From sequence record MT129654.1: a stretch of 64,000 nt of DNA, one strand, 5' to 3'. The stretch comes from Escherichia phage MN04. The notes under the pieces are model-generated. The model worked only from the letters and a program-made list of their open reading frames with translations. It was not told the DNA's origin and searched no databases. The position numbers and the translations under genes were made by a program. This document shows, one piece after another, positions 2,927 to 51,704 of the stretch; positions within the stretch are counted from its first letter, which is position 1; every line of letters begins with the position of its first letter.

Positions 2927-4207
2927 TTATGCCTCGTAAATAATCGGAGGAAGTTTAACACCAAGCAGATAAGACATGTTACTCTGACCTGCCATTAAAT
3001 CCATATTAGTTGCGTCTATAACACGAGCTTCTTTATCATCTTTAGCAACGGTATATGGGTTTGCTGAAAGTGCATAACGAACCATCAGAGAAATAGCCGG
3101 TTGTAAACTATCAGGGTCTACAATAACTTTATACGCACCAACATGTTCTTGGTCGTCTAAATCCAGACCTTCGGTATACGGAGCATAGAAAATAGAACCA
3201 ACTACTTCATTACCGCCGTAATCTTCTTTAACGCCTACGATAACATAATCTAAAGGACTATTAACATCACAGAATACAGGCAATCCATTAATCAAATAAC
3301 CGTAAGCAGTTTCTGGGAGCCAAGCTTCATCTTCTGGTTTATGTTTCAACCAACCTGAACCAGCGAGCATAGCAGCAGCACGACTAGATGCGACAACAAA
3401 CGTACCTGAATAAGAAGTGGTTTTCTGAATTTCAGAATTCATCTCACAAACCATTTCATATAATTTACGTGCACTTTCTGGGGCGGAATTATAGGACAAA
3501 TCAATAATACCATTATCAGATACACCAGTTACTTTGTAACGTTTAGATACGGTAATCAAGGATTGTAGTACGTCTTTATTGATTTCATCAGCCATTACAG
3601 TGGCTAAAAGGTCTTCTAAGAACGCAGGGGCGTCGAAGCCATTGGATTCCATGTCTTGGGCTAGTTCTACAGTCAAAGCGGTTTTAAGTTTACGAGACTT
3701 AACAGGTGCGTTCCATTTATTAACCTGGAATACTGCATTACTAATTTCAACATCACCTGCTTCGAATTTCTCTGTGTGAGCCGCATCAGGAACCAGACGA
3801 CATGTTAATGACACCAAACCTTCTTGAAGGGCCTCAGCCAATTCTGTAGCGCTAGTGGATGCGAGTGGGCTTGCTTGAAGAGCCTTATAAACTATGTTCT
3901 GATACTTGAAATATTCACCCTTGGCAATAGCCTGGGCCTTATCTGTGAGTTCTGGGATAGTTTCACGGTCTTTAGAACCAACTTCACCGCCATAAACGGC
4001 ACCAGTTTGGAAGCTAAATTCATTATCAGGAGTAAGATATTTGACACCATACAATGCAGCAATAGGCTGGCTAGTACGTTGTTCAGCAATAATATCACGG
4101 TAAATCAATTTGGTTGTAGCACGGGTCAAAGCAACAAGATTAGGGCGACCCAATGAGTTGCTAGAAGTAGTTGTTGACTCGCGCAGTAATTCGTTAATCT
4201 TTGCCAT
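2927..4207 (-). CDS. gp24: Head vertex protein gp24
   Basis: 426 aa; MAKINELLRESTTT N-terminus and overall match to T4 gp24; adjacent to gp23. Confidence 0.85.
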   Translation of the reverse strand: MAKINELLRESTTTSSNSLGRPNLVALTRATTKLIYRDIIAEQRTSQPIAALYGVKYLTPDNEFSFQTGAVYGGEVGSKDRETIPELTDKAQAIAKGEYFKYQNIVYKALQASPLASTSATELAEALQEGLVSLTCRLVPDAAHTEKFEAGDVEISNAVFQVNKWNAPVKSRKLKTALTVELAQDMESNGFDAPAFLEDLLATVMADEINKDVLQSLITVSKRYKVTGVSDNGIIDLSYNSAPESARKLYEMVCEMNSEIQKTTSYSGTFVVASSRAAAMLAGSGWLKHKPEDEAWLPETAYGYLINGLPVFCDVNSPLDYVIVGVKEDYGGNEVVGSIFYAPYTEGLDLDDQEHVGAYKVIVDPDSLQPAISLMVRYALSANPYTVAKDDKEARVIDATNMDLMAGQSNMSYLLGVKLPPIIYEA

Positions 4208-39323: not shown

Positions 39324-39397
39324 GGCCCTGTAGCTGGACGGTCAAGCGAGCGACTCATAATCGCTGGATGGTGGTTCGATTCCACCCAGGGCCACCA
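39324..39397 (+). tRNA. tRNA-Met (anticodon CAU; could be Ile2 if lysidine-modified)
   Basis: Perfect 7-bp acceptor stem, anticodon stem AGCGA/TCGCT with loop CTCATAA, T-arm GGTGG-TTCGATT-CCACC, encoded CCA. Confidence 0.8.
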
Positions 39398-39401
39398 ATT
39401 T

Positions 39402-39476
39402 GGATGTGTAGCTCAGTGGTAGAGCAGTTGACTGTTAATCAATTGGTCCATGGTTCGAATCCATGCATGTCCGCCA
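39402..39476 (+). tRNA. tRNA-Asn (anticodon GUU)
   Basis: Cloverleaf: D-arm GCTC/GAGC, anticodon loop CTGTTAA, T-arm CATGG-TTCGAAT-CCATG, acceptor with two G-U pairs, CCA. Confidence 0.75.
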
Positions 39477-39480
39477 AATA

Positions 39481-39556
39481 CGAGGCATAGCTCAGAAGGA
39501 AGAGCAACGGTCTTCTAAACCGTAGGTCGTAGGTTCGATCCCTACTGTCTCGACCA
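39481..39556 (+). tRNA. tRNA-Arg (anticodon UCU)
   Basis: Cloverleaf: D-arm GCTC/GAGC, anticodon stem ACGGT/ACCGT loop CTTCTAA, T-arm GTAGG-TTCGATC-CCTAC, CCA. Confidence 0.85.
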
Positions 39557-39840
39557 AACAAGAAACCGGGTCGCTACCGGTAAGCCGTCGGACTGATGTT
39601 CCCTGAGTAAGGACTGACATTAACAAATCTTTACGATCTGTTAACGTCCCCTTACATCACAGCAGAAACGGCGCACCGAATTATCGATTCGAGGAAATAT
39701 CTTTGCCGTAAGCCGAGTAGCGTTTTTGACGGAACGTTCGGATATGGTCGAGATATGGCCTTTTAAAAATATTGAGTAGCGTCAACTACTTAATAACCGG
39801 GTTCGAATCCTGGCGTTTCGTACAAACACTTGCCTAGCAG
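39557..39840 (+). ncRNA. Candidate small stable RNA(s) or degenerate tRNA-like element after the tRNA cluster
   Basis: No ORF; tRNA-like T-arm (CCGGG-TTCGAAT-CCTGG) and 7-bp acceptor pairing 39730-36 with 39814-20; internal repeats CGGTAAGCCG and GAGTAGCG. Confidence 0.3.
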
Positions 39841-49175: not shown

Positions 49176-49664
49176 ATGGATATTTTTGATATGTTACGTC
49201 AAGACGAAGGTCTTGATTTAAATCTTTATAAAGACACTGAAGGTTATTGGACTATTGGTATTGGCCAGTTAGTTACCAAGAACCCATCTAAAGATGTTGC
49301 TCGCGCTGAACTTGATAAGCTTATGGGCCGAGTTTGTAATGGTCGTATTACTATGGCTGAAGCTGAACAACTCTTTAATCGTTCAGTGGAAAATGCTCGT
49401 AGAGCTATAATGCGTAATCCTAAATTGAAACCGGTTTATGATGTGCTGGACGAAGTTCGTCGTTGCGCATTGATTAATATGGTCTTCCAAATGGGCGAAG
49501 CTGGTGTAGCAGGATTTACCAACTCTCTGCGTATGCTCCAACAGAAACGTTGGGATGATGCCGCAGTTAACCTGGCGCAGTCTCGTTGGTACAAGCAAAC
49601 CCCGAATCGTGCCAAGCGTGTTATCGCCACTTTTAAAACAGGTACTTGGGCTGCTTATAGATAA
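49176..49664 (+). CDS. e: Lysozyme (endolysin)
   Basis: 162 aa; '[30 protein letters not shown]...' near-collinear with T4 lysozyme. Confidence 0.95.
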
Positions 49665-49748: not shown

Positions 49749-50345
49749 ATGAAAACGTATAAAGAATTTATCACCGAAGCTACTGCAGGAAAGGTCAAAG
49801 GCATTAATAAAGATGAGTGGACCTACCGAGGAAACGGCGTTGACAACCCAGGAAACGGCTTTGACGCTAAAACAGCTCCTATTGAACGGTATTTAGCTAC
49901 AAAAGCTTCCGACTTTAAAGCTTTCGCCTGGGAAGGACTTCGCTGGCGTAACGACCTAAATATTGAAGCTGATGGACTTAAATTTGCTCATATTCAGGAT
50001 GTTGTTGCTAGTAACTTAGACGCAGCTTTTGTTAAAGCTGACAGCGACCTTCGTCGCTGGAATTTAAAACTGTTCTCTAAACAGAAAGGTCCGGTATTTG
50101 TACCTAAAGCAGGTAAATGGACTATTGATAATAAATTGGCTAAAGCAGTCAACTTCGCTGGTCTTGAATTTGCCAAGCATAAATCAGCATGGAAAGGTCT
50201 TGATACAATGGCTTTCCGTAAAGAATTTGCCGATGTTATGACTAAAGCCGGCTTTAAGGCAGAGCTAGATACCTCTAAAGGTACGTTTAAAGACGCTAAT
50301 ATTCAGTACGCTTACGCCGTTGCTAATGCCGCTCGTGGTAATTAA
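49749..50345 (+). CDS. ipIII: Internal protein III-like (capsid targeting sequence)
   Basis: 198 aa; N-terminus MKTYKEFITEA; position after e as T4 ipIII. Confidence 0.7.
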   Translation: MKTYKEFITEATAGKVKGINKDEWTYRGNGVDNPGNGFDAKTAPIERYLATKASDFKAFAWEGLRWRNDLNIEADGLKFAHIQDVVASNLDAAFVKADSDLRRWNLKLFSKQKGPVFVPKAGKWTIDNKLAKAVNFAGLEFAKHKSAWKGLDTMAFRKEFADVMTKAGFKAELDTSKGTFKDANIQYAYAVANAARGN

Positions 50346-50405
50346 TAAAGCCTATACTGACCCTTAAATCCGTGATAGAATACTTCTATCAACTTAAGGA
50401 ATAAT

Positions 50406-50705
50406 ATGAAAACTTATCAAGAATTTATTACAGAAGCCAAAGCTCCTAAAGCATTCCAAATAGGTGTCCAAGGCACCTTAGACCAAGAATATGTTGATGC
50501 TATTGTAGCAAGCCTCGGTAAACAGGGTGTACAAGTGGATTTGGTTGATTTTACTAAAGGTAATACTTTTAATATTGTTACATCTAAAGGCTCTTTAGCT
50601 AAAGTTAAAAAGGCCTTTGGTGTAGCCCAAGCATACGAAATCGACCACTCCGAATTGGAAAATAAAGGTCGCCAGAACACAATTAAAGGTTCTGGTTCTT
50701 TCTAA
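50406..50705 (+). CDS. ipII: Internal protein II-like (capsid targeting sequence)
   Basis: 99 aa (T4 IPII about 100); N-terminus MKTYQEFITEA. Confidence 0.7.
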   Translation: MKTYQEFITEAKAPKAFQIGVQGTLDQEYVDAIVASLGKQGVQVDLVDFTKGNTFNIVTSKGSLAKVKKAFGVAQAYEIDHSELENKGRQNTIKGSGSF

Positions 50706-50801
50706 TAAAGGCAAGCCGGCCCTCTCCTCATGAACGTCGCGTCCTCTGAGTGATGGACCTTTCCCTACCTGTAATAAGGTCGAGCCCAAGTGCGGTAAAG
50801 G

Positions 50802-50830
50802 GTTTACATACGGATACATGGATGAATTAT
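50802..50830 (+). promoter_or_regulatory. Early promoter (GTTTACA, 17 bp, AATTAT)
   Basis: Hexamers with 17-bp spacer, 35 nt upstream of ATG 50866. Confidence 0.5.
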
Positions 50831-50865
50831 GTGCCAAGGAATGGCCCCACAACTAAGAGACAATT

Positions 50866-51411
50866 ATGAAAACGTTTTTAACCGGTAGTTATCTATCCCT
50901 GATGAATGCTTTTGCAAACCATTCTGATGCTAGAGTAGAACACATTTGTAATAGTGGGTTTTATGTACCCGATTCACCAACCCTGTTTAAAGAATGCTGC
51001 ACCTTAAAACTTGACGGCGGACGCCAATCTGGCAAAACAAGGGCAGTATCCATTTTTGCTACAGAATGGTTAGCTAATGGTGGCTCTATTGTTATTTTGT
51101 CTAATAACACGGCGTATGCTAATGTTTCGGCTACTGCAATCCGAAAAGAATATTTTAATAACCATACAGAAAGTATTAAGTACCGTTTGTACACTGATTC
51201 TGTTCGTAGTTTTATTGGTAACACTGCATGCAAATTCCGTGGATTATCACTTTCACGGGTTCTGTATATAATTGATGAGCCTGTTAAAACACCTGATATG
51301 GATAAGATTTATGATGCTCATATAAAGGTAGTCCAGAATTGCTGCCGAGCTCAATGCGTAGAAAGAAATCAAACCGCAAGACCTTTGTTTTTTGTGATAG
51401 GAATGCAATGA
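50866..51411 (+). CDS. P-loop NTPase (hypothetical)
   Basis: 181 aa; Walker A 'GGRQSGKT', Walker B 'LYIIDEP'. Confidence 0.55.
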   Translation: MKTFLTGSYLSLMNAFANHSDARVEHICNSGFYVPDSPTLFKECCTLKLDGGRQSGKTRAVSIFATEWLANGGSIVILSNNTAYANVSATAIRKEYFNNHTESIKYRLYTDSVRSFIGNTACKFRGLSLSRVLYIIDEPVKTPDMDKIYDAHIKVVQNCCRAQCVERNQTARPLFFVIGMQ

Positions 51412-51704
51412 TGACTGATGAAGAGCTTTTTGAGTTCTGTTATTTCTCACGTAAGGTTCGAAGAGAGGACCTTACTGCAAATTTCGAATATGCTTATTTC
51501 TATCCATTAGAATATGTATTCATGTCAGGGCCCTTTAAGGGCTCTCGTTTTAGATGCCATGCCCCAAGCATCCGATTAATGAAACAGGTTCCTTACTTCA
51601 CTCTCGAGTTCATCTCTGGGCCGTGTAAGGGTATTATTACTCGCAGTCTCTTGACGTATGACCAAGAGATTCATATGATTTCTGACTGGAAAAAATATGT
51701 CTAA
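51408..51704 (+). CDS. Hypothetical protein, translationally coupled to P-loop gene
   Basis: ATG 51408 overlapping upstream TGA; 98 aa with internal duplication (YVFMSGPFKGSRF / LEFISGPCKGII). Confidence 0.45.
   Translation: MMTDEELFEFCYFSRKVRREDLTANFEYAYFYPLEYVFMSGPFKGSRFRCHAPSIRLMKQVPYFTLEFISGPCKGIITRSLLTYDQEIHMISDWKKYV

Follow-up and report, generated by a model that had tools for sequence, protein, structure and literature searches.

We report that positions 50707-50814 (+ strand) of a 64,000-nucleotide (nt) stretch of Escherichia phage MN04 (MT129654.1; the whole stretch is referred to here as the window) are predicted to encode a strand-specific, non-coding RNA whose pseudoknotted fold is supported by covariation. 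The window derives from a JS98-type (Dhakavirus-like) relative of T4, with the + strand corresponding to the direction of early transcription, and the element occupies most of the gap between an ipII-like gene and a vs.8-like gene. The element is conserved across unrelated virulent phages, is autonomous from its neighbours and is linked to transfer RNA (tRNA) islands. Given these properties, we lean, with slightly better than an even chance, toward the view that it represents an unannotated family of autonomous, stable, structured non-coding phage RNAs of the RNAC/RNAD or ROOL/GOLLD kind. The original prediction had singled out 50706-50801 as a GC-rich segment that could be a gene remnant, a structured RNA or a recombination scar. 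Covariation in three independent alignments strongly supports the structured-RNA option, and the coordinates are best widened to 50707-50814, plus a 3´ module that extends to 50848.

The core of the element is a three-way junction of helices P1, P2 and P3, supported by a MAFFT alignment (A2, n=53) and in a model alignment (A5, n=89 distinct sequences). In these two alignments the covariation score is 0.28-0.29 compared with 0.11 in column shuffles, and 0 of 500 shuffles reached it. Register shifts mostly collapse the core pairing, with the +1 shift staying fairly high because P1 has two registers. P1 (here and below, all coordinates of the fold are on the + strand) pairs CCCT at 50763-50766 with AGGG at 50799-50802. 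Its innermost pair in A5 is AU in 48 sequences, UA in 23, CG in 8, GC in 5 and UG in 5, and is unpaired in 0; in alignment A3, none of the three P1 pairs tested is unpaired in any sequence, and two of the three change in a compensatory way. P2 is a hairpin at 50767-50780 in which ACC and GGT enclose the loop TGTAATAA; the hairpin loop reads UGUAAUAA, with the consensus N-CC[UGURNNAA]GG-N'. The closing pair of P2 is AU in 81, GC in 6 and CG in 2 of the A5 sequences (0 unpaired), and the CC/GG pairs as well as the loop nucleotides U, G, U ... A, A are invariant in A2.

The junction J2/3 that follows is CGA at 50781-50783, with the consensus C-N-A in A2, and leads into the P3 hairpin, GC(C) [CAAG] (T)GC at 50784-50793, for which the consensus is G-N-(N)[loop](N)-N-C. 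The second pair of P3 also varies compensatorily in A5 (CG65, UA19, GC3, AU1; 1 unpaired). The last junction, J3/1, is GGTAA (RNA GGUAA) at 50794-50798, and its invariance is partly imposed because the search patterns required part of GGTAA. Together, the P2 loop UGURNNAA, the J2/3 C-N-A and the J3/1 GGUAA make up about 20 near-invariant unpaired nucleotides.

The complete structured body, encompassing all helices from Pa to P0 as judged by A3 covariation, spans 50707-50814 and begins 2 nt past the ipII-like stop codon. A3, which contains 21 T4-like sequences, comprises 34 pairs; 94.3% of cells are paired, 11 of the 34 pairs show compensatory changes, and all six register-shift controls are ≤41% paired. 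G-U pairs occur on the + strand only, which indicates that the RNA is read from the same strand as the flanking genes. In this alignment, P0 and Pb were obtained from RNAalifold, while Pa, Pc and the complementarity between the P2 loop and UUACA were spotted by eye. Pa, formed by AAAGG (50707-50711) and CCTTT (50758-50762), closes the 5´ domain. A3 columns 11/58, which belong to Pa, form a GC pair in 10 sequences, a CG pair in 6 and an AU pair in 1. The minimum-energy alternative CCUUU/AAGGG was rejected, as it is not conserved whereas Pa is. Within the 5´ domain are Pb (50720-24 with 50752-56), whose pair at columns 20/56 is CG in 12 sequences, AU in 9 and unpaired in 0, and the Pc hairpin (50727-30 with 50747-50), whose pairs are invariant in A3; the 5´ strand of Pc is followed by a conserved UGAAC at 50731-35.

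P0 is a long-range helix that pairs GCCG (50715-50718) with CGGA (50811-50814), thereby linking the 5´ domain to the 3´ tail, and it crosses Pa to give a pseudoknot. All four of its pairs are compensatory in A3, with columns 17/113 occurring as CG14, AU3, UA3 and GC1. A second pseudoknot, between TGTAA of the P2 loop (50770-50774) and TTACA at 50804-50808, is tentative. This pairing is present in 99% of A3 cells and rests on one compensatory change (UGUGA/UCACA in PG7), with one further G-U pair. The local hairpin GUAAA/UUUAC proposed by RNAalifold was set aside, given that it lacks covariation and is broken in PG7, and remains only as a competitor to the loop-UUACA pairing.

An unrelated environmental phage lineage with different sequences in every variable helix (alignment A6, n=12) has the same order of elements: Pa, P0 5´ strand, inner hairpin, Pa´, P1, P2, P3, P1´ and P0 3´ strand. 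In A6, 94.8% of cells are paired and compensatory changes are found for 11 of 24 pairs, three of them in P0; two out-of-register members have their own P0 of 7-8 base pairs (CAAGAAC/GTTCTTG). The covariance check suggested in the original prediction thus supports the RNA fold both in the T4-like alignment and in an independent lineage. Direct reading also revealed P0 equivalents elsewhere, namely ACCG/CGGU in locus L083, ACUG/CAGU in L058, CCAG/CUGG in FV3 and CGGA/UCCG in ~46-kb phages.

The BLASTN check, also suggested originally, revealed that the gap matches 1036 phage records, T4 included; an ordinary 3´ untranslated region (UTR) with no conservation, the finding that was to refute the prediction, is therefore not what the segment is. 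Among T4-like phages, the homologous segment follows denV in T4 and Enterobacter phage PG7, ipIII in Moon, LC53 and Klebsiella Marfavirus PhiKpNIH-6, ip4 or another internal head protein gene in RB68 and CGG4-1, and a hypothetical gene in a Mosigvirus. For five of seven comparisons with the window, the nucleotide identity of the element is 0.70-0.81 versus 0.59-0.62 for vs.8 (40-46% at the amino acid level). The exceptions are T4, which has a shortened 5´ domain and where the element (0.59) falls below vs.8 (0.68), and the Mosigvirus, where the trend is the same (0.78 versus 0.70) with a better conserved vs.8. The next open reading frame (ORF) always lies within about 50-90 nt after the RNA in the T4-likes and is usually vs.8, but is an ipII-like gene in Marfavirus.

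In these phages, and only in these, the RNA body is followed by a 3´ module (50818-50848, +) that always sits just upstream of the next ORF. The module has GGA at 50820-22 (in AUGGA) and at 50838-40, 18 nt apart, with the second GGA in the loop of a hairpin, GCCA/TGGC (50833-36 with 50842-45). It is almost invariant in alignments A1 and A3, and is missing from the first copies of tandem arrays and from non-T4 phages. CsrA targets carry two GGA motifs 10-63 nt apart, with at least one in a hairpin loop, and the geometry of the module resembles such a two-site target, though we consider this assignment putative.

Beyond the T4-likes, the 32-nt core ACCTGTAATAAGGTCGAGCCCAAGTGCGGTAA also matched rV5-like phages (FV3) and the 45-kb phage Ivi, and is intergenic in both. 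Scanning IMG/VR, metagenomes and a single genome for each prokaryotic species with degenerate patterns brought in further relatives, which were passed through a structural filter (for the genome scan only) and then a covariance model, R1. R1 gave 106 matches in the collected loci (27.6-72.5 bits) from 100 sources, representing 89 distinct sequences. In the window it has one match, at 50759-50807 (72 bits, E=6e-23), with the next best at 9 bits. Carriers of the 49-nt core include T4-likes of many genera, two rV5-like groups, ~46-kb phages, a 359-kb jumbo phage contig (L064), several environmental lineages and Pseudomonas megaplasmids. The scan of ~185,000 species-representative genomes yielded 108 pattern matches, which were judged by the structural filter only and were not scored with R1. 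Nearly all were chance-like matches in coding DNA, and only two copies looked genuine by this filter, both on Pseudomonas megaplasmids. A plasmid search added one further megaplasmid copy, in a record that carries no annotation. These three (L152, L160 and L199; 42-50 bits) are from Pseudomonas serbica, Pseudomonas sp. PLMAX and P. silesiensis plasmids of 0.95-1.17 Mb, and no tRNA was found in the 8 kb scanned for L152 and L160. BLAST against 5,426 complete E. coli genomes gave no match, indicating that the element is not a host-derived sequence.

No known family accounts for the element in the searches that we carried out. With Rfam 15, nothing was found at the element for window positions 50300-51200 at E≤10, where only a spurious mir-101 match was returned elsewhere, or for 15 related loci at E≤0.1. 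The Rfam tRNA model had no match at the element in any locus scanned, and ARAGORN found only 39324-39556 in the window and no cloverleaf at the element. A literature search by sequence returned nothing relevant, and key-word searches of the literature returned no description.

The genes that flank the RNA vary between phage lineages, which points to an autonomous module. Protein clustering of the neighbourhoods of 17 lineages revealed no family common to at least three lineages except for two trivial clusters, which we dismissed: one consists of pseudo-ORFs lying antisense to the RNA, the other of large proteins of rV5-likes and L079 that are unrelated. What recurs is tRNA genes. A same-strand tRNA lies within ~1 kb in 24 of 36 non-T4 loci from IMG/VR and genomes, corresponding to 11 of 17 lineages, and the association was seen again in the metagenome set. 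For every locus with both (43/43), the RNA and the tRNAs share a strand. They lie 18 to >500 nt apart, and the RNA can be the first, an internal or the last element of the cluster. The shortest gaps are 18 nt before tRNA-Thr (L066) and 30-52 nt after a tRNA (L250, L083, L316, L064 and L276), and in L079, L080, L214 and L257 the RNA lies between tRNAs. The co-location fails in the T4-likes, where the RNA is ~11 kb from the tRNA cluster, and in ~6 of the 17 lineages.

Transcription signals were found around the RNA in some of these phages. In FV3, a promoter-like site (10/12 matches) lies upstream of the RNA, and a terminator-like hairpin followed by a strong promoter-like site (11/12 matches, with TG) lies downstream; this bracketing suggests that the RNA is its own transcription unit. 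In L083 and L058, the RNA is followed by a hairpin and U-run terminator, which we cite from direct reading only, the terminator scan having missed both (the U-run is partly in the stem). The RNA is also found in tandem in Karamvirus-like phages and two other lineages. Two-copy loci are L032 5092-5251 (-), L038 9020-9180 (+), L306 362-522 (+), L074 829-962 (+), L203 2107-2240 (+) and L281 158-204 and 2459-2506 (+). L037 has a degenerate second copy (reverse-strand ~3250-3320) in which P1 and the junction are kept and unrelated hairpins replace P2 and P3. As a separate observation, in the tRNA cluster of phage L070 the stretch that separates tRNA-Asn from the new RNA has a match to the Rfam abiF RNA (RF03085; 3624-3655, -; 45.4 bits, gathering score 37), and this match may be a phage-borne antitoxin-RNA mimic.

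If the element is a stable non-coding RNA, it would be co-transcribed with its neighbours, in the window as the tail of the ipIII-ipII message, and in other phages either as part of a tRNA precursor or, as in FV3, under a promoter of its own. Trimming of the transcript would yield a stable RNA, roughly 110-150 nt long, whose action depends on its fold and is not directed at the adjacent gene. Its partner could be a conserved host factor, tRNA-related machinery or a tRNA-related substrate, a small ligand, or the RNA itself. Given that no phage protein travels with the RNA, the likeliest candidates are a conserved component of the host and a tRNA-related substrate, either of which the RNA would bind or sequester, and a decoy or sequestering role is our favoured candidate mechanism within this model. 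We also entertain, as a possible but less than likely extension, that this RNA founds a functional class of its own: a pseudoknotted RNA, independent of any protein, which phages of several families, T4 included, carry beside their tRNA genes and which acts directly on tRNAs, on the host machinery that processes them or on the immune machinery that targets them. Such an RNA might act as a tRNA-docking module, a nuclease decoy or a new self-cleaving ribozyme.

Several observations weigh against a stable, autonomous RNA. To our knowledge, classical gel work on the stable RNAs of T4 reported only the tRNAs, RNAC and RNAD. The minimum-energy fold of the single sequence, a check that had been proposed with the original prediction, is unremarkable on both strands (z=+0.46 and +0.23). 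When P0 complementarity was tested in the different lineages by shuffling single sequences, the result did not reach significance (median p 0.65), and we therefore claim P0 only where alignments covary, that is, within lineages. No tRNA was found in the available flanks of the Ivi-type, L061, L062 and L077 types or of the Pseudomonas megaplasmids. In the T4-likes, moreover, the RNA is always followed by the conserved GGA module and then by an ORF, usually vs.8, and this constancy leaves room for a cis role in that group.

Such a role would make the RNA a cis-regulatory leader, a riboswitch or a protein- or tRNA-sensing aptamer controlling the downstream gene (vs.8 in most T4-likes). The covariation alignments do reveal a conserved fold of aptamer grade, with the ultra-conserved junction and the pseudoknotting that aptamers have; the T4-like ORF follows within about 50-90 nt, after the conserved hairpin module, and tandem copies are known for some riboswitches. 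We nevertheless regard this reading as improbable. The constant 5´ UTR position and expression platform of a riboswitch were not found, since what lies downstream varies among vs.8, the ipII-like gene of Marfavirus, tRNAs, terminators, a promoter and unrelated ORFs. In FV3 the strong promoter-like site parts the RNA from the next gene, and in L083 and L058 the RNA is the last element before the terminator. In addition, there is no conserved alternative pairing, CCUUU/AAGGG not being conserved. An anti-defence decoy that mimics a host RNA, such as an antitoxin RNA or the part of a tRNA targeted by a nuclease, would be a special case of the stable RNA that we favour. Phage tRNA islands are known as counter-defence loci (PMC11464382), the abiF-RNA match lies between a tRNA and the new RNA in the related phage L070, and some phages have tandem copies. 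The searches revealed no host counterpart, however, with 0 matches in the 5,426 E. coli genomes and only the two Pseudomonas megaplasmid copies that passed the structural filter among ~185,000 species genomes, and these same scans turned up no homologue beside a host toxin gene, as would be expected of a type III antitoxin. We accordingly assign this specific form of mimicry a rather low probability.

There is a small chance that the RNA is a new self-cleaving or RNA-processing ribozyme that cuts polycistronic tRNA or mRNA precursors. It resembles the twister, pistol, hatchet and theta hepatitis delta virus (HDV)-like ribozymes (PMC10879173) in being small and in combining invariant unpaired nucleotides with variable peripheral stems, and it shares with them occasional tandem copies, the lack of a partner protein and a phage/tRNA context. 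But no Rfam ribozyme model matches even at E≤10, the junction lengths of 0-1, 3 and 5 nt fit neither the hammerhead nor the HDV-like topology when mapped by hand, and the distance to the tRNA end varies from 18 to >500 nt, in contrast to theta ribozymes, which sit directly against the 3´ end of the tRNA. When the RNA was mapped by hand onto hammerhead, HDV-like, twister and T-loop motifs, we judged the likenesses to be compatible with chance, and likewise a 9-nt identity, GUGCGGUAA, to the RNase P RNA of E. coli. A DNA-level signal (an early promoter plus upstream element, or a site bound by a protein) is very unlikely, as is a small coding gene. The weak promoter-like match at 50803-50830 and the T4 RefSeq annotation, which makes the homologous stretch the N-terminus of vs.8, would be in keeping with one or the other; yet homologues do not keep the -10-like part, the covarying paired columns show G-U on one strand only, indels are not multiples of 3, and the vs.8 frame of the window is shut by a TAA four codons before the ATG. 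Scarcely credible is the denV remnant or recombination scar of the original prediction. It was correct that denV is absent (tblastn of T4 DenV against the whole window, best E=3.7) and that the segment corresponds in position to denV in T4. Both T4 and PG7, however, have the element intact directly 3´ of denV, and it shows no resemblance to DenV, which refutes a remnant, and its core is present in many other contexts, including unrelated phages that have no denV/ip context, with covariation of the RNA type, which speaks against a scar. We also ruled out an intrinsic terminator or plain 3´ UTR hairpin, since a terminator scan of 50706-50865 found no terminator-like site and the fold has multiple helices.

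The remaining descriptive claims about the segment in the window mostly held up. Its GC-richness is real and far from chance: 50706-50801 has 55.2% G+C versus 39.8% for the whole window, and only 0.12% of 96-nt windows (mean 39.8%, standard deviation 5.3) reach this value. The string originally quoted for it, GCAAGCCGGCCCTCTCC..., begins at 50711. The segment was said to have no ORF, and indeed all three forward frames of 50706-50868 contain stops. The program-listed ORFs that overlap it, 50750-50869 (+, 39 amino acids, GTG start) and 50595-50852 (-, 85 amino acids, TTG start), are not kept in homologues because of 1-2 nt indels inside the conserved core. The segment was also said to be bounded by the next early promoter, for which support is weak. 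The candidate, TTTACA-16-AATTAT at 50803-50830, has 9/12 matches, and only its -35-like part is conserved, the -10-like part not. The conserved -35-like GTTTACA could also base-pair with the P2 loop, to which it is complementary.

The genes of this region are, in order, e (lysozyme; 49176-49664), an ipIII-like gene (49749-50345), the ipII-like internal head protein gene (50406-50705, +; PHROG 2667, E=5e-43), identified as ipII-like already in the original prediction, and, after a gap of 160 nt, the vs.8-like gene (50866-51411, +), encoding a P-loop terminase-N-like ATPase (PHROG 1488, E=1e-68). The spurious mir-101 match (50975-51045, -) is in the vs.8 coding sequence and, at 18 bits compared with a gathering score of 60, is a chance match. 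A listed 121-amino acid ORF with a TTG start (51339-51704, +) overlaps the end of vs.8; its match to phrog_2049 starts at residue 24, which suggests that its real start is probably an ATG at ~51408, overlapping the vs.8 stop. In T4 RefSeq NC_000866.4 (64253-64912; L198 2254-2913, minus strand), vs.8 is annotated as a 219-amino acid ORF whose first ~19 codons cover the RNA core (64855-64903, minus strand). As the vs.8 frame in the window is closed by TAA four codons before ATG 50866, the long T4 start is probably over-extended, and the true start is probably that of the 179-amino acid ORF 64.0(4) of X04567.

T4 is the most intensively studied virulent phage. The element described here would be a third structured RNA in T4, besides RNAC and RNAD, that is far more widespread than these two and that was masked by the probably over-extended vs.8 annotation. 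If the RNA does found a new functional class, no other structured regulatory or catalytic RNA, tRNAs aside, would have been assigned a role in T4 before it. With E. coli as host, T4 or JS98 could provide a small, genetically tractable model for why phage tRNA islands carry conserved non-coding RNAs such as ROOL, GOLLD, RNAC and RNAD. In practical terms, gene starts can be corrected, and the covariance model can be used to annotate >1000 genomes.

How does this RNA compare with known systems? The T4 RNAs RNAC and RNAD (species 1 and 2) are stable RNAs of ~120-140 nt in the tRNA region with unknown roles (PMC3014915, PMC9697503). The new RNA is likewise small, non-coding and borne by T4-type phages, and outside the T4-likes it is co-located and co-oriented with tRNAs. 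It differs in having no sequence or model similarity to them, with R1 matching neither rnaC nor rnaD, in lacking the tRNA-like T-arm of RNAC, and in lying ~11 kb from the tRNA cluster in T4-likes. As for RNAC and RNAD themselves, close homologues of T4 rnaD and rnaC are present in the window at 39557-39840 (+), directly after tRNA-Arg (39481-39556), and went unreported by ARAGORN. An RNAD-like sequence, UAAAGUCGUCGAACUGAU ... GAAGCGGCGCACCAAA, is also present in the ~46-kb phages L022 and L035, ~300 nt 3´ of the new RNA and just before tRNA-Arg (L035 ~2330-2456), indicating that the T4 RNAD family reaches beyond the T4-likes.

ROOL and GOLLD are phage and prophage RNAs with multiple pseudoknots that often occur near tRNA islands and have no known protein partner (PMC12286853). 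The new RNA shares with them a structured, pseudoknotted phage RNA near tRNA islands and the absence of a protein partner; however, ROOL and GOLLD are 5-8 times larger and form homo-oligomeric cages, and the new RNA has no Rfam match and is found in phages of Gammaproteobacteria, T4 among them. The theta (HDV-like) ribozymes are also small structured RNAs in phage tRNA loci (PMC10879173), but hand mapping indicates that the fold described here is not the HDV-type nested double pseudoknot, and the new RNA does not abut tRNA 3´ ends. Three-way-junction riboswitches, such as those for purines and thiamine pyrophosphate, are similar in their invariant junction and loop nucleotides and long-range tertiary pairing, and dissimilar in that the new RNA has neither a fixed gene downstream nor a recognisable expression platform, and matches no Rfam family. 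A bulk prediction from IMG/VR listed 8,495 'DNAVirus_n' candidate structured RNA motifs (PMC10690425), with the same data source and the same type of evidence as here. The new RNA may be among these unnamed motifs, although the text of that article describes no such motif. In being non-coding, structured, phage-borne and co-oriented with tRNA genes wherever both occur, the element has the features of the non-coding RNAs of tRNA islands. On the strength of its predicted fold and its distribution, we place it as a new family among the accessory RNAs of phage tRNA islands, one that shares with the others their context and structured, non-coding nature rather than their sequences or folds.

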